A stretch of 51,283 nucleotides of DNA, counting the filler, from Jimgerdemannia flammicorona (lineage: Eukaryota): assembly GCA_003990765.1 (NCBI GenBank). It is 2 parts of 2 records of this genome, joined end to end, with 100 filler letters (N's around TTAATTAATTAA, not from the genome) between each part and the next. Parts side by side here need not be neighbours in the genome. Positions count along the whole stretch, not along the records: positions 1 to 25,592 come from RBNJ01000814.1; 1 more part is not named here. One strand, written 5' to 3'. Of the stretch, positions 845 to 43,713 are shown piece by piece. The translations under genes and the position numbers were made by a program. The first letter of the stretch is position 1. Each line of letters starts with the position of its first letter. A model generated the notes under the pieces. It saw only the letters and a list, made by a program, of their open reading frames with translations. It was not told the DNA's origin and searched no databases.

Positions 845-3800
845 TTACGGAGACCGGATCATGTTCTCCAGCTCCACGCGGATGCCCGCGGGACTCCAAT
901 TGTAGTCAGAAGGAACATTAGGGCAGGGAAGCAGCAAATACTCGCTTGCTATTGTCGCTTGGTAATTATAGAAGATATACTCCCTCAGTTTGAGACGGTG
1001 AACGATGCTGGGCAACTTCCAATCTGGATAGACACTTTCGAAAGCAGTGTATTTGTACGATTTCTCTTCATGTTTCATCCAGTGGTCTCGTTGAACGTTC
1101 CGTGTGCACGATTCAGCGGCTACTGTCATGTCGCCGCTCCAATATACGCCCATTAAACCCTCCGGTTGATGGTACGTGTCATGTTTCAAATTGTCAGCTT
1201 CATGATTGGCGGAGAGTATACAGGGGCTCCTGCATCTTGGACATGGATGGCCACACCGCGGACGAATATCTTGCGAGTTTTGTCTGTCGATCAGGTATTG
1301 CAAGACTTTCGAACACAGCTCCTCAAGCTTGGCAGACGAAATCGTGGGCATGTGCTCGCCTATACGATTCGCCACGTCTTGTTGGACTCTATCGAAGACG
1401 TCCGGTGTCTCACCGTCGCACGAGTCAAAATCGCTGCCACCGCTTTGTACTTTGAGAGACAGATACGTAGTCATTAAAAGGTTCGCTAATGACGTTCGTA
1501 ACGCACTGAGAAACTTGGCCGCTCGTTGGGATTCCGCTCGTTTTGCCTTGACGGCTGCATCTTTCAAGCTGCTGATTACTTGGCTTCTAAATAAATTCCA
1601 CTGAGGCTGCAGAACTGATTGCATCGTCTTGCAAATGAGATTGTGTTGGACCTTCTGGTAATGCTTACGGCTTGCTTCTGGGTTGAAAATCTCCAAAACT
1701 CGCGACTCCTCGCCTCGTTCGAGCATGTTTAGCAGGTCTAGGTCGAGGTGAGCCTGCATAATCTTTGGGTCGAGCACCCATTGTCGGGTTTTGAGAACAG
1801 CGGCAACGAAAGGAATAAGCTCGTGTTCGAAAGCATTAGCCATGTGCAGCTGGAATATAGAATGCAGAGTTGCCGTGAGGAGCTCGGCCCCTGCAACGCC
1901 TTTGGAGACGTTGTCAAAGAAAATCCACATTTGGTTTTGTTCGTTCTTGAGGCGCACCGAAACACTGTTGTGCATGTCCCAGTTGTCCTGTGCGGTTTTC
2001 AGTAGGCTGACAACTAACGAATAGGCGTGCTCGTGTCCTTTCTGTCGCAGGCCCTTGCTCGCTCCTCTTAGTATTAAATTCGTCGAGTCTATTGCCTCTA
2101 TGACAAGCCTATCAGAGTAGCGTTGCACCGAATGTAGATCGCGATTGATTTTGGCAGTAAGGCGGTTCAGAACCTCTTGCTCATCACTTCGCGAATTGGG
2201 ACCAGAGACCCAGCTGTGGATGATATCATTCACGACAGTCACACCTCTTTGCCAGGAAGATGACAATTGCGATGCGCTCTTGGTAAGCTTAATATTGTCG
2301 GCAATGATACTCTGGTGATTCTTATAGATATTCAGCACAATCTTATCAACCTCGCTAGCCATAGGCGGATGAGCTCCTTTGGCTTCTTGAACAAAGGCAC
2401 TGAAAATGTCCTCAAACATTTTTTGTTTTACCTCCTTGCTCCCCTCGCGGTTGTGCCGTGCCTCCAGTGTGTCACCTTGGAAGAGCTCCCGAATTATTTT
2501 TCTCATGCGTTCCTGATACTTGGCGACATAGGCACCAAACATGCACTGGTTGCTGATAATGTCGCCAAGCATTCGATTCCAAAAGTTCTTTTGATCCAAT
2601 AGTACCCGTTCCCAACGGATCTTCTGGTCGGTTTGCCATTTTTCCCAGCGAGGCTCGGAAAGGTATCTGCGAATTCGCTTGTCGAGCTCGGTGATCTCGT
2701 ACTCGACTGAGATTTCCAGTCGGCTCTCAAACTCCTTTTGCATGCGGTTAACCAACTCTGCATCCATTGCCGCCTTGTTATCGCCGTGACTCACAAGTTC
2801 CTTCTCGAGTTTGCTGAAATTTTCGTCGTAGTGTTGTGTCAGCGACCGTTGCGCCTCCGACATCTTCTTCTCGAGGTCGTCGTGAGCAACGCGTTCAACT
2901 GCTGACTTGAAATTGAGTTGGAAGTTGGACGACAGGATGCACTGCCATACCGTCTCCAAATAGTCTGAGAATGTCTGAATATTTCTTGTGCGCCATCCCC
3001 CAGATGCCGAGGAAGTGAGTCGAGAGTGAATGTGCTCGCGAAGTTGCATCAAATCTTCGCCATATTGCGTAATGGGGAGATCGTTAGGTGGTGCGTGATC
3101 GCGTTTGATGTTTCCAAGCACTTTTATATCGCTATCTCCGTCCTTTGCGGCGTCATAACGGAAGTCTCGGAACGCGCTGTTGACACTCAGCTGTGTTGAA
3201 GATACTCGGACCCCATCATCATAAAGATAATCGTCTTCCCTTTGTGTCGCTGCTGTCTCCCCAAGTTTCGATACCTGTTCAAATGCCTCCCGAAGAGCCA
3301 AGATAAGGCTTTGCTTGATTTCTGAAAGCTTTCCAGTTTGAGTGGTATCGATACGTGTGTACACAAAAAACATCATGGAGCTGAGTTGGCCACCGTTGCT
3401 CTCGGCCAGCTTCGAATCTTGATATGCCGATAGAACGATTGGCAAGATTTCCTTAACGGCTTTGTCGTCTTCGCCGTTGTTGACGACAATCGTCGCATCG
3501 GCCGGGAGAAGTGCAAATGTGGCCATGCGGTTGTCATGGATCTTTAACGTTAAAATGAAAATGCGTCGTTAACATGAGCTGAATTGAAGTACATTATTTC
3601 CACATGCGACGCGTCAACAACGTACCTCACTTTCAGGTAACTCCGAATATTCGGGAGCTCGAACACCCTCGGTGTCCAGCAAAAGTATGTAGTCGTACTC
3701 TGCGCGGCCTTCAACTTTGAGAAGCTGCATGTTGACGCCACGAGTGCACTGGCCGACGCTCGTGCGCAGGCGAACTCCAAACATGATATTCAACAGCGTA

Positions 3801-6800
3801 GACTTCCCGCTGCTCTGTACCCCCATCACGGATAGCACGAATATACGAGGTCGGACTACGGAACGACCATTGTCGCATCTACTGCCCAAGTCTTGCTGTA
3901 CCTCATGGCTCGGTAATTCTTGCTCAATAAGCATGGTCTCCAATTCTCTCAAGACCGCCTGAATCCATGGCAAATTCATCATGCCTGCATCTCCGTCCAT
4001 AAGTTCGAGCGCAAATCCATCTATAAGATGCTGCGCCGCTAAGCGGGGAAGCAGGGAGTAACGATTCGGCTCAGCAACATACAAATGGCTAACCTCGCGC
4101 CACAGGTGCTCCAGCGAGACGACGGTAAGGTTGTAACTTTGTTTGGCTCGTCGCCAATGATCCATGAGTCGTGTCAAATTGTAGCCACGGCTTGAGTAAT
4201 TTCCTGAACGCCTTCGCTCTTCCTCGCATGCCGTCCATGCCGCCTGTTCTGCTTCCTTTCGCTGCCGTAACGCCGTGGCACACTCTAAAACGAGCAATTC
4301 CTCTAGCTGACGGATACCTAGCACGCGCGACACGGGGTTTGGCTGCCGAAGAACTCCAATAAACAGTCGGACAAACTCATGCGTGGACACGTCGTAGGCT
4401 TGTTCGTATCGCCTTCTGCGCTCGGCATCAATTTCCTTCCCGATCCTCGTCTCCTCGCCGGGGTTGTTGCGGTTTTTAATTGAGTGCAAGTTGTTCACGG
4501 CAGCGGCTTCTTTGACGTAACTAAGCTGCATTTTGAAATCCTCCAGTCGCAGCTTTTCAAAAGGCTGCCGCTTCACAACTGACTGGAGTTCTATCAGATT
4601 GACAGGATCAACATCAAGAAGGCCGGGCAATGAGAAGCGAGCGAGCGGAGTTCGCGAATATCCTTCGACCTCTTTGATTTCCTTGGAAAGTGCCTTGGAT
4701 GCATTGACGAGCAATCGCGCGATCTCAGGAACTGTCGATCCGAGATTTCCAGTGAAGCAACGGTGCTTGAACGGTTTGGTTATGACCTTTGACTTTTCCG
4801 TGATCGGGCTTGGTATCCATTTCACAATGCCTTTGATGGTGTGTTGATTGGGGGGGCTAAATGCGCGGGTTGGATCGGGATCGCTCTCAACTAACAAGCA
4901 ATCTGTATATTGCCGCAGGAATGGCCACAGCGGCGTGAAATCACCGATGACGTGAAGAACCATACAAGGTGTCGTGGTGCGTGCCTGCGTGCCAACGTCG
5001 GAAGACACAATGAATCCACACCCAAGTTCTGCCACCGATGTGCACTCAGTAAGCTTGCCGCCAATAGTGTTTCGATCGATGGCGTGCACAGAATGAATGT
5101 TGAACAGCTCCTTCATCCACGCAGCCGTCTGACTTTGCTCGATCGTTCTGCACGAGATGACGGCGATACGCAGCATGGATGTATCCTTGGATAGGCGCAC
5201 AGTACCGCCAACTGTGGTAGTCTCAATGAAGCTCAAAGCAGAAATGTTGAACATGAAGGGCGAAGAGTCACGGTTCGATGGTGTGATGAGAGGCACAGCG
5301 TTACGGCGGTTGAGCAGCAGGCGAAATATTTCCATCTTGCCAGTCACGTCGAACGAGTTGACAACGCCCAGCATTATATCGAAGAGACTGCTGACAGGAA
5401 CAGTTGAAGATGAAACTAAGTTTTCTGCCTCGTCGAACCAGTCGAAAGAAGTCTCATCTTCGGCATTTTCCTCTTCCATATGTTCTTCTGTATGCTCTTC
5501 TATATAATTGGCCGTGAGAGGCGGTAACGCAAGATCCAGCCGATGGCGCAGACAATCCAGAATGTACGTATCTGCTGCCTTCTGTGCAAGCACCAAAGGC
5601 CTGTCAACCAACATGGACGAGTAAGAGTGCAATGCTGCGGATAGTGACGTGCTTTGTCGTTCAGTGCTGCTGTTGTTTTCGTTTATGTCATCTTGAGCGA
5701 TACTAATCCAATCGGCCTCCTCTGGTTGACGAGCTCGTGGCTTGGTCAAATTAGCTTCTGGATGCGTGATATTCCTCACATCTTCAATCAACGAATGCAT
5801 GCCTTCATCAGTGAGCGGTACAAGAAACCCATCTTCAGTCCAGCCGTAGTAGTTGATGAGTCTTTCTGCGACGGCCGCGTGTGAACCTATCGATTGGGGT
5901 TGTTGTCCAATGTTTTTTGCCAACACTTCCGACACGCGCTGATTTAGTAAAGTCAAGTCGATGGCTTGAACACCGTCCATTATCTCCGATTTCAGACAAG
6001 AAAGAGACTCGGCGAGATCGCTAATGTCGACAGACGGAACATCCCACGAGCGAGTTGTGTCGCCTACTTTCGAATTACCTATCACGCCGACCGGTGCTAC
6101 AACAATCTTGCGCAGCTTCGGTGTCAACACAATGCTCGCCTGTTCAAGTTGTTCTCGTGTGGTGGCGTCAAATACCTTTCGAAGCAGATGGTGCGACTCC
6201 GGTTTACCTTCAAGCTCAGCGACTCGGTCCAAGAAGTTTGGCAAATAACTGCGCTGCATTGCTTCGAGCAAGGTTCGACCAGATTCATATCTGCAGCGAG
6301 AAATAATATAGAATATTGTAACAAGAGTTGTCATGAGGTCACTATCTGTCGCGGATATAAGATCCAAGTTTAGCGTCTTAACTAGTATTCTATCCAACTC
6401 ATCGAATGCTTCGTTGAAAGGTAGCCCGCACTCAAAATTGCGGATTTGGCTGCTGAGATGGCACGCATTGTTCTTCACCGCATCGGCAATCAAGGCATCC
6501 ATCTTTGCGCGCTGTATTTCAAACTGCACAATCGGGATGTAGTTGTATTGGCCAGCATTCTGGAGCCACGCCGTGCGAAGTAGCTGAGCCGCAGTGCGAA
6601 TCTCCGCGCTCGAGTCATCTTTCAAGAGGTCCCAGATTGGCACAAGTGAACCGAAGTCATCTCGATCGATGATATGCCAGGTGCGGTTGTTGGACTGCAG
6701 CACTTTGTAGAAAAGATCGGGATTCGTGGTGTTCGGTCCATGCGCCTCGGCTTTCAGACTAATTTCTGCATCGCGTCTTGCGTTTTCTGAAGTCGCCGTC

Positions 6801-8605
6801 TCAGATTCAAAGTTGAAGCTCGTATGCTTAACAGAAGTGCCGGCTTCGAATCCAAAGCCAGAGAAACCGAGTGACTCCTCATTGCTTATCTGACGACCGG
6901 CCAGAGTTTGCAAAATCGAAGCCTCCGTTTCATCGTTTGTCTTCACCTCGACGATGCGCCACAGGATGCCTCCGAGGTGATGCATACCACTCGAAACATG
7001 CGAACCGTATTCGGAAAGAAATTTACGTGCCCGCTCCATGTTGATCACTGCACGTGCGTCGCCTTCAGCTTCTCTCGACAACCTCATCTGATCTCGGGGA
7101 ATACAAAATGCTTTCGTGTAAAAAAGGTTGAAGTGCATAGCGGCCGCGGTTGCCGTTAGAGTCTTCGAGTTCCCGCCACCAAAAACACATCCGTCCGCTC
7201 TCAAGCCGGAAGCCAAGGTGTAGCCAGATGATATCGCGATACGACGGAATTCCGCGCCCGTCTCAGCGCTTGAGAACGATACCGAATCACATTTGTTGGC
7301 GTGCAAAGGAGGGACCAGTTGGCAGTAAACTGGCTCGCGCAACAACGGACGTCTAGCTTGGTGGCCAAGTAATTCAGGATTTCCGCCAAAATACATGCCG
7401 TGGAGGGCCAGCCCGGCGCTGCATCGTGCGATGAGTTGTTCGTCCGGCTCGACCGAAACTGACGAAGGGTCGAGATCGGAACATGCACCAATCAAATCGT
7501 TCTCGATGTTGCTGAGGCTGTTTTTCAGCGCCGTAGAGTCCCACTCAGTTGGCCAAGTAAGACCGTCCGTCTTAAACATGCGATGCAACTCTTGAACGCG
7601 ATCTTTCAGATTGTCTCTTTCGGTTGGGTGATCGGTGGCCGCTTCAATTTTGAGATCTCTCACGGTTTTTATTGCTTCCTCGACGCGCACCTTGTTCGCC
7701 AGCCTGCTTTCTTCTGCGCGATTCTTCTCCTCTCGCGCGGTAGCGGTCTCTTCGTGAAACATACGAGACAACTTGCTCTTGGCCTTTGGGTCGCTCTCTT
7801 CAGCAATCAATTGCTCTATGCGACGTTGGTCGATGTCGTCAATGCAATTGATACCTTCACTTTCGAGTTTGTCGGTAAAAATAGGAGGAAGTTTGTATTT
7901 GAAGACGGTGCACCTGATATCGTTTCCGGCAGCCCATAACTCGGTTATGATTCTTTCATTGACCGTGGAAGTACCGCCGCTCGATGATATTTGCCACTGA
8001 ATGTCCACCCAACGTTGCTGCTGGAGTTGCCTTCTTGTTGGAAATCGCCGACAAAACTCGTCGAGCCAGGAGGGATTGCCGACACCTGCAGCCTTTAAAA
8101 GGCCACGAACTTCGAGCCGATCTTTAAGCCGACTTAGCGCCGCAGTCTCAATACCGAGCTCCTGCGCTCGATTCGAGTCTTGAAGTGCCTGTGCGAGGTC
8201 ATCTTGCTTGAAAGAATAGTCCATAATGAGCGGTATAGCCAGATCCGTCATGTGGAGATCCTTCAGTAAGTCTTGGAGCCCGGGTTCAAGCGAAAGTAGG
8301 GCGGCATCGCACAACAAAACACGATCGGCGGCGCTCAACGACGAAGATTGGCCATAGTTGTCATCCTCCAAGATCCTGCGGACAATACCCGCCAATTCAT
8401 GCAACCTCTCGGGCTCGTTCATGGCCCTGTCGAGCTCGGAGCGCCAATCATCTAAATATAAAAACAGGTGATGCAAGGCGTAAGTCAATGGAATTGAGAC
8501 GCCGAATCCGAATATATATATATACCGATCTTTCAAACTATAATCACCAAGAATGTTTTCTGATGTATGAGAGCTTTCAGAATGATTATCTGGTTGTACA
8601 ATCAT
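845..8605 (-). CDS. Very large inducible GTPase (GVIN1/VLIG/URGCP-like), ~2,550 aa, with N-terminal MACPF-like segment; exons ~8605..3626 and 3541..845
   Basis: ORFs 3614..8659 and 845..3526 join through a phase-0 intron at 3625..3542 (GTACGT...TTAAAG), giving DTEGVRAPEYSELPESE|IHDNRMATFALL, which matches the VLIG pattern DTEGLRAPE...HDNELATF. Motifs: G1 GVQSSGKSTLLN, G2 GQCTRG, G3 LLDTEG, the GVIN-type LRHLWRE-like motif (LEHLWREVSHLY) and a C-terminal Cys/His cluster CGHPCPRCRSPC...HDTYHQPEGL. The 5' end is uncertain: the track start at 8659 is TTG, the first ATG is at 8605, and 8452..8525 looks intron-like. Confidence 0.9.
3542..3625 (-). other. Spliceosomal intron (84 nt) in the VLIG gene
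   Basis: Donor GAG|GTACGT and acceptor TTAAAG|ATC. The intron contains the in-frame TGA that ends the upstream ORF, and splicing restores the conserved HDN motif in frame. Confidence 0.9.
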
Positions 8606-9220
8606 GGCGTACACACTTCGATGTAGCTGCAATAAACGCTCTACCAAAATAGCGTCCAAGTTAGTATGTATCTTTGCGCGTCAAATAGATTGTCAGCGAA
8701 TGCAAGTTCTTCACTACTCACATTTGTATTTGGTTATGAAATCGAATTGCTTTCAATTTTTAGACAGAATGTAATGTTCAGAGTCCAGTTCCAAGATCTC
8801 AGTCCCGCGAGAATCCCTGATCCACAAAAGCCCTCAGAAAGTTTTTTTTTTTTATTGAGCCTCACCAGATATACTAACGTAGCTCTTTAGTTCTTCAGAG
8901 CCTTCAGAGTCCTTCTAGGCCGTAACGTTCCCTAACAGGTATTGTTCGTGATATCGTTCGAGTCTTGCGCACAGTGTGATACGAATTCTTGTTATATATA
9001 GTTGTATAATAGCGAGAAATCTGGCACACTTAGTTGGGGATATGTTGTCCTTTCGAACAACGAAGAGGCATAATTTAGATTTGCAGCTCTCATAAATAGA
9101 GCTCGCATATGTGTGGGAATTCTTTACACGACTCACGAAACCTTGGGTTCAGATTGCAAGCCACAATCGACAATCGCGAACTATACCAAGATCAGTGCGC
9201 TGATATAAGCGACTGTTTCT

Positions 9221-10306: not shown

Positions 10307-11129
10307 TTAACAGTCACGTTTATCATCTCGTATCGTTTGGCCCCAGTGAAAATAGTGCGTGAATAAAGGTGTCAAAAAATGAGAGATTGTGCTGATGTAA
10401 TGTTATCACACTGAAAATGAGACAGCGATTTCTCTACATTTCGACTTTTCTATTCTTTTCGCATTACATAAACTTAACTTTTGTGGATGTATATACGCGC
10501 GGTGTGAAGTGGGGCTAAGGGTTTTACTATGAAATGCATCTTAGCCGCCTGGCCTGAAAAGCGACTGCAAGCATTGTCATTCCACAACCGGGCTGTACCC
10601 AGCACCTTTGGCAATGTCGATCAATGATCGTTTGGTATGTTTTTACATGATTGACTGAACCAATCATGTTCTTTTATGCCTTTTTATGCCTCGGTACCGT
10701 CGGCACCGCAAGGTGTCCCAAATTTTTGCAGGACGATACAGGTTTAGCTTCCCTACTGCGGTAAGTAATTTGATTCCATACCCATGTTCCGTTATTACAC
10801 AAACGTCTCCAAGTACTTCGTCTTTGTTTCACTGTCATTGTTGTAAGGGGTTTCAGCTGAATAGGGTACAGTCGGAATTTGCGTGCACTGAACGGCTAAG
10901 GGCTGAATGACGGCTAAGTGCAGAACGACTCGACTCTGCCTGTAGTGAAAACCCCCCATAACTGCGGAACTGTGTGTGACGTTACATACCGTTCAAATGA
11001 TATAAACAATTATTTGTCCAACATCTTGGAAATCATGTGTCATGTTGCTGTGGCACAGATACGCTCCATAAATACCTCCGTCAACAGATATGAATGGATC
11101 GTATTTCTCTCGAACTATTTCCAAAACAA

Positions 11130-12248
11130 ATGAACAACTTCACCAAGGGTTACGCTCTGTTGATCGGCACCGGTGTAAACGCATCCGGAGAGCCTGATCC
11201 TGCCTACGACAGCACCATCAACGATACGAATTGGCTCCACGAAATTCTGACGGACCGTAAACGGTGTGCCTACAAGCCAGAACAAGTGATCAAGCTGACC
11301 GGACCAGAAACAACTCGGGGCAACATTCTCGATGCAATGGATAGTATGTCCAGGGACGCCAACGAAGACTCCACCGTCATAATCTTCTTCTCTGGACACG
11401 GCGGGCGTGCCAAGGATGACAAAACGTTCCTCATTCCATTTGGGTATCAAGACGGTCAAGACCCAGCAAAATTCGCCGTCGACGCAAAATGCCTCAAGGA
11501 TTGTCTGGCCAAATTTGATGTCAAAAAACTCGTTCTCCTCATCAACTGCTGTCACGCCGCCGGCGTCGTCACCGAAACCACCTTTACTCCCACGCTTTCT
11601 TCCAATGAAGAGCAAGAGCAAGAGCTTGGCTTACGAAACATGGTTTTGAACGAGAGTCAGATCAATAGGCTCAACCAAGGAACCGGGTTCGTCGTTATGT
11701 CGTCGTCGCTTGCCAGTGAGGTGTCATATACTGGATATCTGAGGAACGTACGTGGCAAAGAAAAATACAGCGCCTTCACCATCGGTATCGGGAATGCTCT
11801 GTCTGGCCGTGGTCAGCAAGGAGATGGCTTGGTATATGTCACCGACCTGACGTCGAAATGCCGATCATTCGTGGTGGAGAAGACAAAAAATAAGCAGCAC
11901 CCTTACTTCAAGCTCTGCTGTGACGATTTTCCGATCGCCTATTACAATGGCGGCCTTTCCACCGGCGCATCCGTGCTGGGAGACGATTTTATAGAGGCAG
12001 AACCTGATGAGGCCGAAGCGGCGCCGGAGCCGGCGCCGAAAAGAGTACGGCAGCAGCCGAATATAATAACGACAAACAATATCAAAAACATGAAAGTCGG
12101 TGGCAATGCGTACTATGCACCCATAACCACTACCGTTACAGGTGGGGCTATACATTTCGGAACAGTTAACCATGGGCCAATTACCAATACAATTAGCGGT
12201 GGGTCATTTGGCAATGGGGCATTTAACAGTGGGAGTAACCCCCAATAA
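11130..12248 (+). CDS. Caspase-family (peptidase C14, metacaspase/orthocaspase-like) protease with C-terminal amyloid-like repeat tail
   Basis: Intronless ORF with GYALLIGTG first strand, IND, catalytic His in FFSGHGG, catalytic Cys in LINCCHAAG, and p10-like SSSLASEVSY / SAFT / QHP. The ATG at 11130 has an A-rich context (CAAAACAAATG) downstream of CATAAATA (11067). An upstream in-frame ATG lies at 11094. Confidence 0.9.
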   Translation: MNNFTKGYALLIGTGVNASGEPDPAYDSTINDTNWLHEILTDRKRCAYKPEQVIKLTGPETTRGNILDAMDSMSRDANEDSTVIIFFSGHGGRAKDDKTFLIPFGYQDGQDPAKFAVDAKCLKDCLAKFDVKKLVLLINCCHAAGVVTETTFTPTLSSNEEQEQELGLRNMVLNESQINRLNQGTGFVVMSSSLASEVSYTGYLRNVRGKEKYSAFTIGIGNALSGRGQQGDGLVYVTDLTSKCRSFVVEKTKNKQHPYFKLCCDDFPIAYYNGGLSTGASVLGDDFIEAEPDEAEAAPEPAPKRVRQQPNIITTNNIKNMKVGGNAYYAPITTTVTGGAIHFGTVNHGPITNTISGGSFGNGAFNSGSNPQ

Positions 12249-12714
12249 TTGGGAGTAGGTTTGCTGCGTTGTTGTTTCTCAAATGTATTGTTATTTATGT
12301 AATTATAAATATACCCACAATTACGATATTGCCACCGAAAGTTCCTTGAGCGCCTGGTACACTGTTCAATGTCGACAGTATTTTTATATCTAGCCAACGG
12401 GGCTAGTTGCGGGTCTTTTCTCGCATAGGTTTGGTCGCCTGAAACCGGTAAAATCGAGAAACCACAAATGTGTCATATTGAGCAAGCGAACTTCAAGCAG
12501 TCGAAGGGTAAGCAATACGATCGGACTTATACGTCAAGCACCATGTCAGATACACATTGAAATGCTTCCAAAACTTACGCGACTATATCGCTCACGATAA
12601 TCTTTGAGATTTTTAATAAATTAACAGGAAACACGACTTTACGATCGACTCCACACTACGCCAGAGTATGTAAAGTGCGCACTCCACAATCCAAACTCTT
12701 AGCTTCTAATACTT

Positions 12715-27648: not shown

Positions 27649-29679
27649 ATGGTGACCAACAAGCATCCGGAGGTGCATACTGGGTAGGGTGGCCCTGGAG
27701 CGTTTGACTGGCAGCAAGTGGGGAGAGGCCCCGGCCTGGGGGGAAGTATGAGGGGCCTGCTGGCGGGGGGCCGCGGTGGAAGAGGGGGTGGAGCTGGAGG
27801 TCAAGGGTCCGGCAGGGTGAGCTTTGCAGAGAAGGTGAAGGGGGGTCGACAGAGAGCTGGACTGGAGAGCTGGCTGAGAGGGGGGAAGGTACCGGTGGTG
27901 GCTTCCAGGCAGCAACCACTTGGAGGTGCCTCTCTGGAGGGCCATAGGAGTGGAGCTGGGGGAGTAGCGGCTGGGGCGGGGACTGCTGATGGGGGTGTGA
28001 CGGGTGATCTGGAAAAAAATCTAGATGGGACTGCTGATGGTGAGCCGAGCAGTGGGAAGGGCATGAGGCCCGGGGACCTGGCGGATGGTGTAACGGGACT
28101 GGTGGTGGCTCCGTTACTCAAGAAGTCGATCTCGGCATTCGCAGTTACGCTGTGCTTCAGGGGCTTAGCAGTAATGGCAAAAATGGTGTTGGGGCTTATT
28201 GCTAAGCAGGTGGCAGGAGCGGCTTCAGTGAAGTTTCTGAAGGGACTGGAGGGGGTGGAGGTGGGATTTGAGGAGGTGGAACCGCTGGAGGAGGCGCTGA
28301 AGGTTGGGTTAGTGGTTGGGGAGGTGTATGTTCCAATGGCAAGGTGCTTGAAATGGGATCCAAGGGTGGTCCAACTGCTGGTGAAAGGAGTACCCACGGT
28401 GATGGCAATGGAGACAAGGAAGAGAGTGGAGGATGTCATGGCAGAGTATGGCGAGGTAGTGGATATCGGATTCAGGGTCTGGAAAGGGACCGCGCTCAGG
28501 ACTGGGGATGTGGATGTGAGGATTCGGCTAGCTGGGAAAGAGGCTACTGGGAAGATGAGGGACTGGCCTTCGGTGTTGGTCTGGGGGGCCTTTCTATGCA
28601 AGGTGACGTGGGTGAAGGGGAGTAAAGAAGAGGAGGAGGATTTATTGGAAGTGCTGGAGGAGCTGGATGGGGCTGTGGAACGGCGAGCTAAGGCTTGGAA
28701 GACTTTTGAGGAGTCGACGCTTCTGGAGGTGGTGGATGGAAAGAGGATTCGAGTGGACAAGGTGCAGTGGGAAAGGGCTCAAGGACGGAAGAGGCAGAAG
28801 GATTTGCTGGCCAAGCTGGGGGGTGGTCATCAGAAGGATGCGAGCATGAAGATGGGTATAGAAGGGGCCGGAGCGAGTGTCTGGGCTGGTGAGAGGAGTG
28901 GGAATGAAGGGGCAGGGTCCGGAAAGGCTAAGGAGGTGGAGATTAGAGACCTATATGCTGACAGCACCTTGGAGATTTGGGATGCCGGCTGGGAGAACTC
29001 CCCCACCCCTTTCCCTCTAATCAGGCATGGCCCGGCTTCCAGGAACAAGCCTGGGGAGGACGTGACGATGCTGGGAACCCAGCAGGTGAAATTCAGCGTT
29101 CCGGAGGTGTTGGATGGGGACCAAGTGGGGGTAGCAGGGGAGGAGGAACTGGTAGATGTCCCGGAGGTGTGGGATGAGGACACGAGCGCGGGAGCGGACA
29201 CCACAATGCTGGATGGAGGGAGGCCGGCGACCCCGGGTGGTAAGGAGGTGGGGAACCTACTTTGGATGTGCCGGATGATGAATAACCTGGTGGCGGACGA
29301 GCTGGGGGAGGTGGACTTGCATGGGATGAGTGATGAGCACTGGACGAGAATTTTGCAGGGGGAAGGAGTGGTGATGGCGCTGAAGGTGGAAATTCTCGCG
29401 GTGTACCTGGCGGAGGAAGGGTATGAGGTGGATAAGGAGAGGGAGGCAGAGTTGGCAGTGGTCGTGGGGGAGAAGGCTGAATACTGTTGGAACAGGCGTC
29501 ATGGGTTGTAACTTTGGCAGGAGGCTTGCATCGAGTACCGTGAGGAGTTTGAGGAGAAGGCTGATGAGGAGATGAATGAGCTGTTGGCTGGACTGGAGGC
29601 TCAGAGGGCCGAAGAGGAGGAGGTGATGGCTGAACATAATCTGGACACGGCATGGGAGGAGAGGGGCATGGAGCAGTAG
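27649..29679 (+). pseudogene. LINE ORF1 (Gly-rich N-terminus, RRM-like core, acidic helical C-terminus)
   Basis: ATG at 27649 (MVTN..., also in copy 2). Premature stops at ~27685 (CAG in copy 2) and 29509. RRM-like VKGVP...MAEYGEVVDIGFRVWKGTALRTGDVDVRI. Confidence 0.8.
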
Positions 29680-29709
29680 GGATTGATCGAGAACAAACCG
29701 TATTTCATT

Positions 29710-32700
29710 ATGAACAGTACAACCAACATTTTTTCTTTAAACGTGAATGGGCTTAGGGGCACAGCTAGACGCAGGAACATTTTTCTTTGGTTGAAGGGAT
29801 TGGAGGCCGATCTCTTCCTCTTGCAGGACGTCAGGTGCGAGGATGATGCTGATAGGATGGAATGGACTAAGGAATGGGGTGGTATGGCGATTTGGAACAG
29901 CAAGGTTGGGATTCTGGTTCGGAAAGGCAGAGGGGAGATAAAGGATGTGAGGAGCTGGGGGGAGAGACTGGTCTGGGGTGAGTGGATTCGAGCGGGTTGG
30001 GAGCCGGTCACAGTTGGCTCCTGTTATTGCCCTGCAGTACGGGGGGAGCATGTGGAATGGGTGAAAGGATTACTGGAGAGTGGGATACTTGCTGAAGCTG
30101 GGTTGGATATGCATGGAGGAGATTTCAATATGGTTCGGGATGTATGACTGGATAGAACTGATGGAGGACGGGGTGCGGAGAGCAGGAGTGGGGGGTTAGC
30201 GATGTGGGAGGAGGTTGAAAGGCTAGGAGCACTGGTGGATGCTGGTAGGGAGTACTGGGGGGACAGGAGAGTATATATGCATTGGGCTGGAGGTCTGGGG
30301 ACGAGGATTGACTGGATTCTGATGGCCGACTGTTGGGGCCGCGATGTCTGGAAGGTGTTAGAGGTTGAATGGTGCCCGTGGTCGGATCACTGGGGTCTCT
30401 TGGGACAGGGGTTTTTTGGGGGAAGTAGAGATGGGCCTGGACATTGGTGCCTGAATTCCTCCTTGTTGGATGATGAGGTCCAGTGGGAGGAGTGGGCGAA
30501 AGACATTCAGCTGAAGGTGGCGGATTGGCGGCAGGAAGGGGCAGTGATTGGGGTTCAGTGGATGAGGATGAAAGAGATGGCCAGGATGTATTGGAGCGAG
30601 GTTGGCAGAGTGGCTGGGAAGCAGCAAAGGCAGAAAGTACATTGGGCTTCTACTAGGTTGGCTAGACTCCTGGAAGAATGGGCGAGACTGGCTACAGTGG
30701 AGGGAGAAGAGGATTGGAGACTTACAAGGGTGAGGATGGAGGTTGGGGAACTGCAACAGGTGCTGCGGGAAGAGGAAGAGTCAAGGGTGCAGGGCCTGGT
30801 GGCTCGGCTTCGTTGGCAGGGGGTGGAGGAAGGGGAGAGGCCTTCCAAGTTTCTCACAAGGACACTTCGGGTGAGAAGGGTACAACAGCGGTGGGAAGGG
30901 GTACTTGACTCAGATGATGTACTAGTGCATGGTGTACAGGACATCCTTGGAATGCTGAAGGCGCGATGGAGTGGATTGTGGAGTGAGGAGGAGGGTGGGA
31001 CAGATGCTACAGCCATTGACCAAACGTTAGAAGATTGGCACCCACCGAGGGCTGAGGGACTAGGTGATCTGGTGATGCCAGTAAAGGAGGATGAGATCCA
31101 CCAGGTTCTTGCCGCGACAGCCTCAGATACAGCGCCTGGGGAGGATGGCCTCCCCTGGGATTTCTGGAAGCGAATGGTTGGAGTCCCGGGTATATTGGGG
31201 GAGTTGACAGCACTGTGTGACTCTATATTGCAGTCAGGGAGATGGGTGGGAGAGCAAGACCTTGGGCTGGTGATGCTACTCTATAAGAACAAGGGTAGGC
31301 GAGAGGATTGGAGGAACTGACGGCCGATAATGCTGTTAGATATGGATAGGAAGTTGGTGACTAAGGTGGTGGTGGCAAGGCTACAGAAGGTGGCCCAGCA
31401 GATTGTGGGTGTTGAACAGAGGGGCTTCATTGGGGGTCGGCTCATTAGAGATGGCATGGCCTGGGTGCATGGAGTTATCGAAGGTGCTCGAGCCTGTGGA
31501 CTAGATGGGCATCTTGTCTTCTTGGATCAGGAGAAGGCTTATGACCGGGTACGGCGGGTCTGGCTGGTGAAGGTATTGGATAGAATTGGAGTTCCAGCCT
31601 CATTTCGGTCAGTGATGATCAGCCTTCTGGAAAGGAGTAGGGCTGCGCTGGTGTGCAATGGACATCGAGGGGTGGCTTTCCCTCTGGGCAGGGGAGTGCC
31701 CCAGGGGGGACCCACTGTCCCCCATTCTGTATGCTCTTTCTTTGGAACCCCTCATGGACAGGATTCAGCAGAGGATCGTGGGGCTATCTATCTATGGAGT
31801 TGCCTGGAAGGTCGGAGCCTTTGCAGACGACATAGTGGTTGGTCTGGGGGTGACTGTGGATGTCGAGGAGCTCCAGAAGACAGTGGAGTGGTATGAGGCG
31901 AACTCGGGGGCAAAGCTGAATTGGCACAAGTGTGAGACAATGGTGCTGGGCAATGGCTTGGTGGGTGGGGAGGTTATTGGAACAATTGTCCCCACCGGAG
32001 AGGCAGTGCGGTACTTGGGCATCTATCTGTCGGTCTATGGGTCTGTTTTGCCCAGGCTGTAGTGGGAGCAGAGGATTGGAATTTGGGAGGAAGACCTACG
32101 GGGTTGGGGAGTTAGACACTTCTCTCTGGCAGGAAGGATCTCGATTTTGAATGTTTACTGGCTGCCGAAGCTGTGGTATTTGGCCTATCATCTGGACTTC
32201 CCAGCCTGGGTGGTGAAGAGATTGGTAAAGGTGGCCAAGGGATGGATTTGGGCTGGCAGACAGAGCCAGATTGGTTGGGAGACTCTGTCCCTACCGGTGA
32301 CAAGAGGTGGTCTTGGGCTGGTGGACTTCCCCAAAAGACTTCACTGCTTGCGGGCATGGTGGCTGAGGAGGGCGGTGGGGTTGTGTGGAGGGGGCTAGGT
32401 CCCCTTGCTGCAGAAGATATGGGAGGGGAGGACATCACCTAGAGGCTTGACTGGCGATCTTCTTTCATTAGTTGGGCTTCAGAACACTGCGCAACTGAGA
32501 TATAAAGGCTTCTGGTGGGGTATAGCTGAGGGGGCACACCGCATTGGTATTCGTTGGCGAGGGGATGAAGGGGAGAGGGATTGGGGCCCAGCAATGTGGA
32601 GGTGGGATTGTATTCTTCTGGGGGGCATGCCTTTACTGGAGTTCAACATTAGTGATGGCATTGAATGCCAAAGGGGACCAGGCCAGGATCTGTGGCCTAG

Positions 32701-33367
32701 CGGTTGGCAAGGAGTTGGAATTGGTAAGGAGTGGGACTGGCATGGGGTTTGGACCTGGAGTGCCGTGGTGAAAAGTTGGATGCTGCTGAGGTACTGGATA
32801 GTCTGGTGGCGGGTGCTGAGGAGGAATGTGATGCTTAACTTCCGCTCTGGACACCTTGTGGTCAGAGGCTGCTTTGACTGCGAGGAATACCATAATGTAG
32901 GGCAGGAAGGGGGATTGGTACAGACGCCAGAACATTGGCTAGGGGAGTGTGAGGTGTTGGGAGACTTTTGGTGGGCCATTGGGGACCGCTTGGGGGTAAG
33001 GCGTAGGGGGGATGATGTACGGGGGAGGTGGGAGGACCTGAGGGACTGATTGATAGGAGGGGTAGGGGAAGAGTGGATTACGTTAGGCTGGGCATTGGCT
33101 ATTTGGGTAGGGCTGGCCGGTCACTGGCTATTTGTATTTGAGGAGGAGAAGCGACAGGGCTTGGGGAGCAGGTTAGCAAGGTGGCAGTTCCTTATGGAAG
33201 ACACCTTGATGGGATGGTGGCTTGGCTGGGGGCTGCAGGGGGGTCGGAGGCGTCGCTTAGTGGTGAAAATCTGTAGTCAGAGTGGTGGGAGAGTTGGCAT
33301 TGTTGGTGAGAGGGTGGTCTTTGTATGTGAGAAGGTAGGGTGGGGCTCCCCGATGGGGATTGGTTAG
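29710..33367 (+). pseudogene. LINE ORF2: apurinic endonuclease plus reverse transcriptase
   Basis: APE motifs SLNVNGLRG, GGDFN, RIDWIL, SDH. RT motifs APGEDGLP, (W)RPIMLLDMDRKL, DQEKAYDRV, GVPQG/DPLSP, FADD, RYLG. Several TGA/TAG stops and a +1 frameshift in a G run near 31705. Confidence 0.92.
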
Positions 33368-33429
33368 TGGGTGGTTATATTGTATACTTACTCATAGACT
33401 GGTAATAAAGACGGAGTCCAAGAGACTAT

Positions 33430-37853: not shown

Positions 37854-40800
37854 GTCACTTGGACTCTGCCATTTATTACCCTTCTATTAATAAGTTTACA
37901 GTATACCCTCCCACTATCTGATCCCCATAGGGGTGCCACTCCCTCCACCTACACAAACAAAGACCACTTTCTCACCTGCAACTCCAACCCTCCCCCCACT
38001 CTGCCTACAGATTTTCTCTACCAAATAATGTCTTCAACCCCCCTGCAACCCCCAGCCAAGCCACCATCCTGTCAAGGTGTCTTCCATAAGGCTACACCAC
38101 CTCAGCAGCCTGATCTCTGAGCCAAGTCTCCTTCTATCCTCAAAGACAAATAATCAGTGACTGGTCAGCCCCACCCAAATGGCCAAAGCCCAGCCTAATG
38201 TCAGCCATTCCTTCCCCACCCCCCCCTCCAATCTATCTCTTAAATCCTCCCATCACCCCCACATACCAGCTCCCCTACACACTACCCTCAAATGATCCCC
38301 AATGTTCTGCCAAAAGATACTAAGTATCTCACACTCTTCTAGCCAATGTTCAGGCATCTGCACATATCCCCCTTCTTGCTCTACATTATAACACTCTTCA
38401 CAGTTAAAGCAATCTCCCTCAATAAAGGTGACCTGAGTGAAAGTTGAGCATGACATTCTGCCTCAGCATATGCCACCAGACCACTCAGTACTTCAGCAGT
38501 AGCCACCTCCTCACCTTGGCACTCTAGACCCAAATGCTTTACCAGTCCCACTTCTTGCTGATTCCTACTCTTTGCCAACTGCTAGGCCACAGGTCCTGGC
38601 CTGGTTCCCATTGGTATTCAATCCCATCACCAATATCAAACTCAATTAAGGGAATGCTGCCCAGTAACACTTGGTCCCATCTCCATATTGCTGGGTCCCA
38701 AGCTACCTTCCCTTCATTCCCCTACCACCTAATTCCAATGCAGTGCACCCCCTCTGCCACTCCCTACCAGAAACCTTTGTATTACAATTGTTCAGTGTTC
38801 TGAAGGCCCACAAGTGCTAGGAGATCGCCAGTCGAACCCCAGGGAGAGGACCTCATCTCCCAGACTTTCTGCAATAGGGGGACCCAACCACCCCCTCTCA
38901 ACTCCACCACTCTCTTTAGCCACCATGCTCTCAAGCAGTGCAGCCTTTTAGGAAAGTCAACCAGCCCAAGTCCCCGACTTGCCACTGGTAAGGATAAGAC
39001 CTCCCAGCTGATCTGACTCCACCTTCCAGCCCAGATCCACCCCTTGGCCAGCTTCATCAATCACTTCACCACCTAAGCTGAGAAGTCCAGATGATAAGCC
39101 AGATACCACAACTTCGGCAGCCAATAGACATTCAGAATCAAAACACATCCTGCCAGAGACAATTGGCAGCCCCCCCAACTCCACAAGGCCTCCTCCCAGA
39201 TACCAACCCACTGCTCCCACCAAAGTCTGGGCAGAACCGACCCATATACTGACAGATAGATACCCAAGTACCATACTACCTCACCAGCAGGGACAATGGT
39301 ACCAATAATCTCCCCTCCCACCAGACCATTGCCTAACACCATCATTTCACACTTATGCCAATTAAGCCTAGCCCCAGAGTTCACCTCATACCACTCTACT
39401 GTTTCCTTAAGCTTCTCAACATCCACAATTGATCCCAGACCAACCACTATGTCATCTGCAAATACCCCTACTTTTAACCCAATACCAAAGATAGAGAGCG
39501 CCACTATCTTCTGCCTGATTCTGTCCATTAAGGGCTCCAGAGAAAGGGCATACAAAATGGGGGACAGTGGGTCCCCCTAGGGCACCCCTCTACCTAGGGG
39601 AAATGCTACCCCTCTGTGTCCATTACATATGAGAGCAGCCCTGCTTCCTTCCAGTAGGCTGACCATGGCTATTCTGAACTGGTGCAGGACCCCAATCCTG
39701 TCCAATACTTTCACCAGCCAGATCCATCACACTCAGTCATAAGCCTTCTCCTGGTCCAGAAAGACCAGATGCCCATCCAGTCCACTGGCTCATGCCTCTG
39801 CAATAACTCCATGAACTCATGCTGTGCTATCCCTGATGAGCCAGCCTCCCACAAAGCCCCTCTGCTCATCACCCAAGACTTGCTGGGCCATCTTTTGCAA
39901 CCTTGCAACCACCACCTTAGTAACCAACTTTCCATTCATATTCAGTAGCCTAATCAGCCTCCAGTTCTTCCAGTCCTCTCGCCTTCCTTTGTTCTTATAA
40001 AGCAATGTCACCAGCCCCAGATCCTGTTCTCCCACTCATCTCCCTATCTGTAGAATCCAATCACACAGTGCTGTCATCTCTCCCAGTACTCCAGGGACTC
40101 CCACCATCTTTTTCCAGAAGTCCCAGAGCAGACCATCCTCTCCAGGCACCATATCCAAGGTTGTCTCAGCAAGAACCTGGTGGATCTCCTCCTCTTGCAC
40201 TGGCAGTACTAAGTCACCCAGCCCATCTGCTTATATAGGGTGCTAATCTTTCAATGCTTGGTCAATGTCCTCAATATCTGCCCCACCCTCCTCCTCACTC
40301 CACAATTCACTCCAATGCTTCTTTAATGATCTAAGAATGTCTTGTACACTATGCACCAATATACCATCAGCATTAAGCACCCCCTCCTATCTTTGTTGCA
40401 CCCTTCTTGCCTGAAGGGCTCTTGTGAGAAAATTTGAGGGCCACTCTCCTTCCTCCAACCCCTGCCAATGAAGCCATGCCACCAGACCCTAGACCCTTGC
40501 CTCTTCCTCATTCCACAGCACCTGTTGTAGTTCAACTACCTCTATTCTTACCCTTATCAATCTCCAGTCCTCCCCCCCCTCCAACATCACCAGTCTTGCC
40601 CAGTCCTCCAAGAGTCTAGACAGTCTACTAGATGCCCACCACACCCACCACCTCCTCTGTTTCCCAGCCTCCTTACCAGCCTCACTCCAGAAGGTCCTGG
40701 CCATCTCTTTCATCCTCATCTACCAAATACCAACTGAGGCACCTTCCTGCCTCCAGTACTCCACTTGCAGTTGAATATCTTCAGCTCACTCATCCCACCG

Positions 40801-43713
40801 GATCTGATCATCTAGTAAGGAGGAATTGAGGTGCCAATGTCCAGGCCCATCCCCACTCTCCCCAAAATACCCCTGCCCTAAAAGCCCTCAATGATCCAAC
40901 CAAGGATACCATTCCACCTCCAGTGACTTCCAAACATCCAAGCCCCAGCAGCTAGCTGTCAGAATCCAATCAATTCTCATCCCCAGGCCCCCAGCCCAGT
41001 GCATGTACACCCTCCTATCTCCCCAACATTCTCTACCCACATCCACTAGAGCACTCAGTCTTTCCACTTCCTCCCATACTACCAGTCCTCCACTCTGACC
41101 CTCAGCTCCTCATCCTCCATCAGTTCTATCTCTCAATATGTCTCAGACCATATTGAAGTCCCCACCAAGCATATCCACCCCAACCTCTGCAAGAACTCCA
41201 CTCTCCTGTAGGCCCTTCACCCAATTCACATGCTCACCCCATACCGCAGGGCAGTAACAGGAGCTCACTGTGACTAGCTCCCAACCTGTACATATCCACT
41301 CTCCCCAGACCAATCTATCCCCCCAGCTCTATATATCCCTTATCTCCCCTCTGCCTTTCCTCACTAGAATCCCAACCTTGCCCTTCCAGACTGCCTCACC
41401 TCTCCACTCCTTCATCCATTTCAGTCTATCTAAGTCATCCTCACATCTGACATCCTACAAGAGAAAGAGATTGGCCTCCAATCTCTTCAGCTAAGTAAAA
41501 ATGTTCTTACATCAATAAGTACCCTGTAACCCATTCACATTCAAAGAAAAAATATTGGTTGTACTATTCATAGTGAAGAATGTTGTGTTATCAAGCTTTC
41601 TCTACTGCTCCATATTCATCTTCTCCTGTGCCAAGTCCAGATTATGTTCTATGGTCACTGCCTCCTCTTCAGCCCTCTGAGCCTCCAGTCCAGTCAACAG
41701 CTCATTCATCTCCCCATCTGCCTTCTCCTTGAATTCCTCTCAGTACTCTAGGCAGACTTTCTATCAGAGCTACAGTCTATGGTACTTGGTCCAGCAGTAT
41801 TCAGCCCTCTCTCCCACAACTCCCACCATCTCTGCCTCCTGCTCCTTATCTACCTCATAGCCCTCCTCCTCCAGATACACTATAAGAATTTCTGCCTTCA
41901 ATGCCATCACCACCCCCTCCCCCTGCAGTATCCTTGCCCAATGCTCATCACTCATTACCCTCAAATCCACCTCTCCCAGCTCCTCGGCCACCAGGTTGTT
42001 CATCATCCTGCACATCCAAAGTAGGTTCCCCACCTTCTTTCCTCCAGGGGTCACCAGCCTCCCACCATCTAGCATTGTGGTATCAGCCCCAGCACTCGCA
42101 GCCTTGTCCCATTCCTCTGAGACTTCCACCAGTTCCTCCTCACTGACTGCTACCATCTGTCCCCCTTGTGCTACCTCCAGAACTCCAAATTGCACTCGCT
42201 GGGCCCCCCACATTAGCACATCCTCCACCACACTGCTTTGGGAAGCTGGGCCCCACCTGATAAGAGGAGTAGGAGTAGGGGAGTTCTCCCACATCTCATC
42301 CCAAACCTCCAGCATACCATCTATATATGGGTCCTTGCTAGTTGCCTCCCTGTTCTTGCCCATCCCCTTTCCAGCACTCCCACTTCCCTTGCCAGTCCAG
42401 ACACTTGCTTTGGCTCCCCCTGTATCCACCATCCTACTCATATCCTTCTGAGGCCCACTCTTCATCTTCACCAGCAGTTTCCTCTGTCTCCTACATCTCT
42501 GATCTCATTCCCACTGCTCCTTGCTCACTCGAATCTGCTTCCCATCTACTACCTCCAAGTGCATCACCTCCTCAAAGGCCCTCCAAGCCTTCACCCACTG
42601 TTCCACTGTACCACTCAAGTCTTCCAGCACTTCCAATAGGTCCTCTTCCTCCTCCTCACTCCCCTTCACCCTCATCACCTTACACACGATTGCCCCCCAA
42701 ACCATACCGAAAGGCCAGTCCCTTGCCTTCCCAGTGGCTTCCTTCCCTGCCAGCTGAATCCTCACATCCACATTCCCAGTCCTGAGTGAGGTCCCCTTCC
42801 AGACTCTGAATCCAATATCCAATACCTCTCCATACTCTGTCATGATCTCCTCAACTCTCTTTCTTGTCTCCATCACCATCACCATAGGCACCCCTTTCAC
42901 CAGCAGTTGGACCACTCTGGGATCCCATTTCAGGCATTGTGCCATCAGAACACACACCTCCCCAACTATTAATCCAATCTTCAATGCTTCCTCCAAAGGC
43001 TCAGTCTCCTCAAAGCCCACCTCTACTTCCTCCAGGCCCTTCAAAAACTTTATGGATGCTGCTCCAGCCACCTGCTTAGCAATTAGCCCCAGTATCATTT
43101 TCACCATCACTGCTAGGCCCCAGAAGCACAGTGTCACCACAAATGCTGAGATTGATTTCTTGAGTAATGGTGCTACCACTAGACCTGTCACACTATCTAC
43201 CAAATCTCCTTGTCTCCTAAGCCCTAGTTGCTCAGCCACACCATCCACAGTCACATCTGGATTTTTTTCCAGATTAGCAGTCCTGTCTCCATCAGCCATC
43301 ACACCCCCCCCCCAGCCACTATACCTCTAGTCCCACTGCCCTCTCTGCCAAGGGCTACTCCCCTATGTACTGTCGCCTTCTCTGTTTCCTTGCCTTTCCT
43401 CAACCAACCCTCCAGCCCCAATGTCTGCCTTCTCCCCTTCACTGTCTTAGCAAAGCTCACCCTCCCAGATCTCTATCCTCCACTACTGCCTCCTTCCCTT
43501 CTGCATCCACCTGCCAGCAGCCCCCTCATACCTCCCCCCAGGCCAGGGCCTCTCCCCACATACTGCCAATTGAACATGCTCAGGCCACCCTGCCCAGTAT
43601 GCACCTCAGATTGCCTGTTAGTTACCATGTTGCTAGTCTCTTTTCTCCAAAAACGATATTGTAGTTGCTTTCCAAAAGTTGTGTAACCTGAGAGATACCA
43701 GAGAGAGATGCTG
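37787..43713 (-). mobile_element. Full-length LINE family A, copy 2 (more decayed)
   Basis: Poly(T) at 37787-37850, ORF1 and ORF2 fragments collinear with copy 1 (e.g. YALSLEPLMDRIR...FADD; LLKKSISAF), and a 15-bp TSD TTTATAGCTAATGTC at 37772-37786 and 43714-43728. Confidence 0.95.

Follow-up and report, generated by a model that had tools for sequence, protein, structure and literature searches.

The subject of this study is a caspase-like protease gene with a repeat-bearing C-terminal tail in Jimgerdemannia flammicorona, a root-associated fungus of the Endogonales within the early-diverging Mucoromycota. The gene lies in a 51,283-bp stretch of assembly GCA_003990765.1, in which two parts of two records are joined by 100 filler letters; this whole stretch is called the window below, and all positions count along it (Table 1). 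The database protein P0001 (372 aa) is identical to the product of the open reading frame (ORF), starting at M13, and the ORF encodes a member of the Peptidase C14 / caspase-hemoglobinase fold, on which profile, fold and catalytic residues agree. Besides the Pfam domain, the 'caspase' profile of PADLOC matches the protease (E 5.4e-12), AlphaFold2 (AF2) predicts the caspase core with a predicted local distance difference test score (pLDDT) of 80-97, and a Foldseek search with this core retrieves metacaspase 9, MALT1 and the bacterial GSU0716 at E ~1e-10, MALT1 being among the best structural matches. In the alignment of 16 homologs, the His-Cys dyad is intact. From residue 293 of the 372-aa form onward, the pLDDT is below 50.

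The protein ends in a 63-aa tail, which consists of a 21-aa segment followed by two 19-aa units, A and B, and the last four residues. Units A and B align without gaps, with 9/19 identities and a BLOSUM62 score of 49. On shuffling of the 38 residues of the two units, this score was reached in 0/100,000 trials and nine identities in 4e-5 of trials; when the whole tail was shuffled and the best pair of 19-mers at any offset was taken, none of 5,000 trials reached the score and a fraction of 0.0032 reached the identity. At the DNA level only 35/57 nt are identical, and four of the nine conserved residues use different synonymous codons, hence the repeat is not a recent slippage duplicate; the synonymous divergence instead indicates an old duplication of which the common residues have been retained. 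The tail is rich in Gly (17.5%), Asn (15.9%), Thr (14.3%) and Ile (11.1%) and devoid of Leu, with two charged residues (both Lys), four Pro and only one Gln, and it is the sole G/N/T/S-rich, charge-poor 40-mer of the window in any frame. An initial annotation, made from the sequence alone, had delimited the linker and the tail units, and its coordinates and sequences are reproduced by the ORF; the two gap-free units with nine shared residues that it described lie far beyond composition-matched shuffles, and the counts bear out its G/N/T-rich, nearly chargeless composition (2/63 charged). The 'looser third unit' that it saw in the first segment lacks statistical support, as a hidden Markov model (HMM) of the two units detects only ORF residues 343-361 and 362-380 and misses this segment.

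Table 1. Features of the caspase-like protease gene and of the neighbouring GTPase gene in the window.
Feature	Position	Strand	Remarks
Giant URGCP/VLIG-like GTPase gene	845-8680	-	PF25683, E 4.9e-37; domain at the junction of two frames
Caspase-like protease gene with repeat tail	11094..12248	+	Single-exon ORF, 384 aa; 372 aa from the annotated Met at 11130
Peptidase_C14 (caspase-fold) domain, residues 19-273	11148..11912	+	Pfam PF00656, E 2.5e-15
Catalytic His102, motif SGHG	11397-11399	+	Invariant across 16 homologs
Catalytic Cys153, motif NCCHAAG	11550-11552	+	Nearly invariant across 16 homologs
Acidic/Pro-rich flexible linker EAEPDEAEAAPEPAPKRVRQQ, basic KRVR patch inside	11994..12056	+	From sequence; low pLDDT
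First tail segment PNIITTNNIKNMKVGGNAYYA	12057..12119	+	21 aa; 'looser third unit' of the initial annotation; unseen by the two-unit HMM
Repeat unit A PITTTVTGGAIHFGTVNHG	12120..12176	+	19 aa; HMM 35.2 bits
Repeat unit B PITNTISGGSFGNGAFNSG	12177..12233	+	19 aa; HMM 33.7 bits
C-terminal SNPQ and stop codon (12246-12248)	12234..12248	+	NSG-x-NP common to P0004 and P0005

Among the 16 database hits at E ≤ 0.001, the closest relatives of P0001 are hypothetical proteins of J. flammicorona and Endogone sp. (P0002-P0007), with identities of 71% for P0002, 57% for P0003, 56-57% for P0004 and P0005, and 41/34% for P0006/P0007, and all remaining hits are bacterial or metagenomic. Five Endogonales proteins carry tails of the G/N type, in which the only invariant columns are the V and the H of V-[TF]-x-G-x-[IL]-H, both of which fall in unit A. 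P0004 and P0005 have a single unit and end in NSGANPNWG, and the tail of P0002 is an extended run with a period-5 xVNxG pattern. When pairs of tails were compared by the share of shuffles that reach their local alignment score, 0/2,000 shuffles did so for P0001-P0002, and the other pairs gave P values of 0.0125 (P0001-P0003), 0.03 (P0001-P0004), 0.046 (P0002-P0004), 0.11 (P0003-P0004) and 0.26 (P0002-P0003). P0006 and P0007, both from Jimgerdemannia, bear a hydrophobic, transmembrane-like stretch (AVFVLVILLGYLLHFWL) in place of the G/N-rich repeat, so the C-terminal module has been swapped between fungal paralogs, as in bacteria. The linker is identical at 15/19 positions in P0002 and diverged in P0003-P0005. 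It includes a basic patch, PKRVR (12036-12050), which is kept in P0002 as TPKRVRQQPN and which we take to resemble a monopartite nuclear localisation signal.

Contigs from two runs with one organism label, the kind of which was guessed as RNA, cover positions 11124-12332, at a depth of 277-1290 within the caspase gene and of ~2-10 past 12358; such contigs cannot prove transcript level or strand. One of them (X2 record 9) is contiguous from 11260 to 12332 with 0 differences from the window, adapter sequence occurs in contigs at 12311 and 12332, and no splice joint was seen over the gene in four runs, all of which is consistent with an unspliced transcript that ends ~65-85 nt past the stop codon. 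Near-identical contigs over the tail were also found in two root-metatranscriptome runs (X3 and X4, covering 11964-12270 and 12070-12220), with one synonymous difference and one change of S to T at 12204, in unit B. Two length differences look like allelic variants: 11 bases of the 5' leader are missing at 11056 from a contig of run X1, and 6 bases of the acidic EEQEQE loop that separates the protease subunits are missing at 11608 from a root-metatranscriptome contig. At position 11148, loose ends in run X1 lead from a low-depth contig into the N-terminus of a P0003-type paralog (MLDSNIFEQ...), and because of this continuation several caspase paralogs appear to be present in the same organism and are probably transcribed.

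The role of the equivalent tail was followed in bacterial relatives of the caspase, for which 80 loci from a scan of prokaryotic genomes and 79 from a metagenome scan were combined into a set of 159 (numbered L001-L159). The metagenome scan was directed at close fungal relatives and their neighbours, and its 79 loci are all bacterial-like and at most 32% identical. In 100 of the 159 relatives the match extends to the domain end and a complete C-terminal tail of at least 25 aa follows, and 58 of these tails match another ORF of their own locus at E<0.01 (54 at E<1e-3, 47 at E<1e-5), compared with 6, 4 and 1 of the reversed tails and 1, 0 and 0 of the shuffled tails at the same thresholds; the 100 loci are not independent, since many are from Nostocales or of EAD1 type. 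By profile, bacterial relatives match EAD1, EAD7, EAD10 or TIR_2. In L035 and L047, a caspase-EAD1 protein follows GASH, DO-GTPase2, DO-GTPase1 and GAP1-N1...EAD1 genes (Pfam), in L023 and L034 a caspase-TIR protein stands beside a TIR-nSTAND1 protein with WD40 repeats, and in L010, L012 and L044 a coiled-coil tail matches the N-terminus of iSTAND in iSTAND/AAA/VWA operons. One bacterial relative, P0021, is an all-in-one STAND ATPase-caspase. The principle by which effectors are coupled through matching adaptors was set out by Kaur et al. (2020; PMC7159879, accessible text), and by sequence comparison the C-terminal tails of the bacterial caspase relatives are, as a rule, homotypic adaptors that match a neighbouring sensor.

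The best bacterial match, at 39% identity, is L001, a locus of a Dehalococcoidia metagenome-assembled genome. Its caspase has a 64-aa tail with TQTNIAGDVNGPILSGVFRGSVNIG, and immediately upstream lies the gene of a 706-aa AAA_16/NB-ARC protein with tetratricopeptide repeats (TPR) and the N-terminus SQTIVRDVDGPVLSGQFPGSLTFN, so that a motif of ~25 aa is common to the C-terminus of the caspase and the N-terminus of the NB-ARC/TPR protein (L001:1460-4539). A search of its own 1.9-Mb genome with the L001 tail returned these two proteins as the only matches, and the locus looks like a pair of the BASS type, as bacterial amyloid signalling motifs are called, with a C14 caspase as the putative effector. 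A similar short pair was noticed in L045, where '...RDINAP...' occurs on the caspase tail and in residues 83-105 of a P-loop protein. Tails rich in G/N/Q/S/T are found in 5 of 117 bacterial relatives, including L001. Visual inspection shows ITNTI both in L124 and in unit B, and a resemblance of 'TITISGSTIHG' (L042) to 'TTTVTGGAIHFG' and of 'VNGPI' (L001) to 'VNHGPI'; homology of the fungal and bacterial G/N-rich tails was nonetheless rejected as unproven, as nothing better than E 0.44 was obtained.

For the caspase domain itself, a maximum-likelihood tree was computed from 63 sequences, namely those of six Endogonales proteins and 57 of L001-L080 with near-full-length matches, partial matches, loci L081-L159 and P0007-P0016 having been left out. 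L001 is sister to the six Endogonales caspases, with an ultrafast bootstrap of 100 and an SH-aLRT value of 98, and the program warns of long branches there. The Endogonales caspases thus nest within a bacterial radiation with the Dehalococcoidia sequence as sister; this nesting, in a tree whose only eukaryotic sequences are those of the Endogonales, together with the exclusively bacterial or metagenomic next relatives and the intronless gene, suggests that the Endogonales caspase may have been acquired from bacteria.

In the window, the caspase gene has one large neighbour, a giant URGCP/VLIG-like GTPase gene in divergent orientation at a distance of 2.4 kb. Counted from stop to stop, its two long open frames have 1688 and 907 codons, with a break near 3568-3617 that is probably an intron. 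The adjacency of GTPase and caspase may not be due to chance, since the bacterial caspase relatives serve GTPase-centred conflict systems. Pfam further identified a protein kinase, a YhhN protein, a RAB3GAP2 fragment and retroelements among the ORFs of the window, but no NACHT, NB-ARC or gasdermin domain in 108 ORFs of at least 90 aa and the large ORFs, a search that intron-split genes could escape. Retroelement remains occupy 27700-33400 (+), 38700-43330 (-) and 45900-47600 (-), and comprise LINE-like endonuclease/reverse transcriptase ORFs on both strands, with a strong, strand-specific GC skew of up to +/-0.5, as well as Gypsy-type reverse transcriptase/RNase H/integrase. An AT-rich stretch with a GC content of 0.27-0.29 spans 24-28 kb of the window.

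Tentatively, and with a probability that we set a little short of even, we read the 63-aa tail as a homotypic, beta-rich recruitment and oligomerisation tail, akin to an amyloid signalling motif (ASM), that would serve proximity activation of the caspase; an amyloid-signalling reading of the tail is plausible but unproven from the sequence. In anatomy, two 19-aa units and a 21-aa segment lie C-terminal to an effector domain and behind a linker, as in ASMs, and the composition (G/N/I-rich, no Leu, nearly chargeless) is likewise that of an ASM, though the tail includes four Pro and one Gln. Support at the family level comes from the bacterial relatives, in which the equivalent tail acts as an adaptor, and from the L001 pair, while the modelling of the core with high and of the tail with low confidence also counts in favour. 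We infer that the tail would adopt an amyloid fold of beta-arches, that a partner would exist and that the protease would be activated by clustering. At rest, the tail would be disordered and the protease monomeric and inactive. An activated sensor encoded elsewhere, either a NOD-like receptor (NLR)/STAND protein or another NTPase with one related copy of the motif, or else spontaneous nucleation, would then template the stacking of the tandem units, two or three in number, as beta-arches, and this stacking would cluster the caspase domains, which would be activated through proximity-induced dimerisation or through autoprocessing in the disordered inter-subunit loop. Rather doubtful, in our estimate, is the more far-reaching form of this reading, according to which the tail would represent a new ASM family and give both Mucoromycota and the true C14 caspases of eukaryotes their first ASM. 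Tail and protease would have been inherited together from a bacterial NLR/caspase short-motif pair like that of L001, and the protein would be a minimal 'inflammasome' effector whose caspase is clustered and switched on by a sensor-templated beta-solenoid fibril.

Several results weigh against an amyloid-signalling function. Between P0001 and P0002 the identity is 212/275 in the caspase, and then 13/21, 9/19 and 7/19 in the successive tail segments, of which the first is the best kept; going by these alignments, the tail type is common to the paralogs with G/N-type tails and its sequence conservation past P0001-P0002 is marginal, a pattern that fits either fast co-evolving motifs or weak constraint. 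No second copy of the motif is present in the six frames of the window, where a unit HMM, regular expressions and phmmer with the tail gave other hits at E 1.6-4 at best, in agreement with the statement of the initial annotation that no partner motif is visible there. The giant GTPase was considered as a motif-sharing partner and rejected, as none of its segments is similar to the tail. Four fungal tails compared by phmmer with the six-frame ORFs of the 159 bacterial loci reached E 0.44-4.7 at best. An exhaustive phmmer search of 1.84 billion representatives with the tail returned only the protein itself and P0018-P0020, which were dismissed as carriers of the motif, being repetitive bacterial proteins whose scores add up from 6-9 weak repeats with 7-9.5 bits apiece, and a word-index search of longer proteins returned only the protein itself among 224 candidates; these tail searches are low-powered for a motif of ~20 aa, for which even the tail of the 71%-identical P0002 scores just 29 bits. 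A sequence search of the PDB with the tail produced no relative and one chance match (E 1.4), and structure matches from the ESM Atlas were set aside as meaningless for a disordered tail, none being usable by its features.

Among the families of Pfam, in which the HET-s prion domain, NACHT_sigma and Ses_B/PP are represented, neither a described ASM family nor any other matched the tail even at E ≤ 10. In addition, NLRs are few in the sampled Mucoromycota, down to one per species in the accessible part of the survey (PMC12258605), which lowers the prior for a classical NLR as partner. The low pLDDT of the tail, which comes from an alignment in which only five sequences cover it and is therefore weak evidence either way, would fit an amyloid motif and ordinary disorder alike. 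Of the 'new amyloid motif' that the initial annotation had proposed, the anatomy and the support at family level stand, while a partner motif in the window, a Pfam match and significant similarity to the bacterial motifs were not found, which leaves it a good hypothesis.

The same observations can be read in other ways. The tail could be a disordered appendix of low complexity that evolves fast and has no specific partner, and its repeat an old duplication held by weak constraints, for instance on solubility, turnover or non-specific condensation. A pLDDT of 25-30 for the tail within the full protein, a divergence much faster than that of the domain with marginal similarity between distant paralogs, the failure of searches in the window and the databases to find a partner or another carrier of the motif, and the quite different hydrophobic tail of P0006 and P0007 all speak for this. 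It is hard to reconcile, however, with units that retain G, N, P, I and T at the same positions despite their synonymous divergence, with a first segment and unit A that are recognisably kept between P0001 and P0002 (0/2,000 shuffles), and with the position of the tail, at which 58 of 100 bacterial loci have a specific adaptor; a nearly chargeless sequence with regular hydrophobic/Gly spacing is moreover atypical of neutral linkers, and we regard a mere appendix as unlikely. That the tail is a specific adaptor of a non-amyloid kind, acting by beta-strand addition or by folding on binding, with the giant GTPase or another sensor without the same motif as its partner, seems to us decidedly unlikely. 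The bacterial tail-partner pairs are mostly globular or coiled-coil rather than short motifs, the bacterial relatives are effectors of GTPase-centred systems (L035, L047; PMC7159879, accessible text), and the URGCP/VLIG-like gene lies 2.4 kb away in divergent orientation, all of which speaks for such an adaptor. Yet the tail has no EAD, TIR or other Pfam match at E ≤ 10 and no confident AF2 fold, the giant GTPase lacks a tail-like segment and belongs to a family different from the bacterial DO-GTPases, and a tandem pseudo-repeat is a hallmark of stacking motifs, not of 1:1 adaptors.

Finally, the fold could be intramolecular, with the three segments of a single chain forming a small beta-solenoid or beta-sandwich cap; such a cap would control the protease, for instance through auto-inhibition, with no assembly between molecules. 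Three rungs could arise from the three tandem segments of 19-21 residues, in which Gly and Asn are regularly spaced, unit A and the first segment show Chou-Fasman beta propensity (a crude indicator), AF2 models the tail alone as an all-beta hairpin with strands at 3-14, 17-28 and 31-34, and the xVNxG run of P0002 recalls beta-helix repeats. The tail-alone model is of low confidence, however (pLDDT 51.7, predicted template modelling score 0.29; in the full protein the tail has a pLDDT of 25-30), Pfam detected none of the repeat families, pentapeptide and bactofilin included, in the tail at E ≤ 10, and P0004 and P0005 own a single unit, too little for a stand-alone solenoid. We consider such a cap very improbable.

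In Ascomycota, signalling from NLRs to effectors through amyloid templating is established; it has been proposed for Basidiomycota and described in multicellular bacteria, and the effectors in those systems are mostly pore-formers and hydrolases, in bacteria also CHAT proteases. If the recruitment tail proposed here is real, it would add a new motif to the ASMs, introduce an effector class new to eukaryotes and bring in a further fungal phylum; the amyloid-signalling principle would then reach Mucoromycota and be linked to a protease of apparent bacterial ancestry, and a simple model would be at hand in which a beta-arch polymer activates a caspase by proximity, in functional parallel with ASC/caspase-1 or BCL10/MALT1 filaments. 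The bacterial data are of interest in their own right, as they show C-terminal tails that serve, as a rule, as address labels of the caspase clade for a neighbouring sensor, and as they disclose the caspase/NB-ARC-TPR pair with a short motif in L001. In the literature that was found, as far as its accessible text goes, no such motif is described for amyloid signalling in Mucoromycota, and no literature was found that joins Jimgerdemannia with caspase. The main text of PMC9815663 does not mention Mucoromycota, C14 or metacaspase, and the accessible part of PMC8195603 contains nothing on fungal caspases of the bacterial type found in the window.

Among known systems, the fungal NLR-associated ASMs are the nearest in anatomy. 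The available text of PMC9815663 describes the motif families HRAM, PP, sigma and PUASM together with basidiomycete motifs, the effectors HeLo, HeLo-like and PNP_UDP, and doubled motifs on the effector side. Like these motifs (as in HET-s/NWD2 with HRAM, PP, sigma and PUASM), the tail has an uncharged, G/N-rich motif of ~20 aa that is doubled, C-terminal and placed behind a linker (PMC9815663). In contrast to them, the effector is a C14 caspase-fold protease instead of HeLo, HeLo-like or PNP_UDP, the host belongs to the Mucoromycota (Endogonales) and not to the Asco- or Basidiomycota, the units abut with no loop between them, and an NLR partner was not found in the window. The pattern PITxTxxGGxxxxGxxNxG of the window also fits neither PP (G-hydrophobic-Q-hydrophobic-G) nor PUASM (FxGxGxQxxGxGxF) as these patterns are given in the available text (PMC9815663).

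In the accessible text of the BASS preprint (10.1101/2020.01.06.895854), bacterial and fungal ASMs are enriched in N, G, V, I and Q and depleted in K, P and L, two or three pseudo-repeats occur on the effector side, and BASS motifs are found next to CHAT metacaspase domains. The window protein resembles these systems in having a caspase-superfamily effector, a short C-terminal motif of the same composition bias and two to three pseudo-repeats, and the L001 pair, sister of the fungal clade, has the same anatomy with the motif at the C-terminus of the caspase and the N-terminus of the NB-ARC-TPR protein; the protease in the window, however, belongs to C14 instead of CHAT, and its host is a eukaryote. 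The fungal motif also lacks significant similarity to the tails of L001, L042, L082 and L124.

With the caspase effectors of bacterial NTP-dependent conflict systems, which carry EAD, TIR or coiled-coil adaptors, the protein shares a homologous caspase domain (33-39% identity) and an adaptor position at the C-terminus, where in bacteria the adaptor matches a sensor or core component (PMC7159879, accessible text). Their adaptors are globular or helical and ~60-120 aa long, whereas the fungal tail is a 63-aa repeat the partner of which is not adjacent. In the yeast metacaspase Mca1/Yca1, a fungal caspase-fold protease is likewise fused to an aggregation-prone, N-rich region (PMC2847904, accessible text), but the yeast region is N-terminal, Q/N-rich, of low complexity and without a defined repeat, and belongs to a type I metacaspase, whereas the tail in the window is C-terminal, has a defined 19-aa pseudo-repeat and follows a caspase of bacterial type.

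In animals, ASC/caspase-1 CARD filaments and BCL10-MALT1 activate a caspase-fold protease by proximity, the protease being clustered by an adaptor that polymerises. These assemblies are helical filaments of the death fold, in contrast to a beta-arch motif, and their adaptor sequences are unrelated to the fungal tail, but if the favoured reading of the tail as an amyloid-like oligomerisation module is right, the Endogonales protease would work in the same way.

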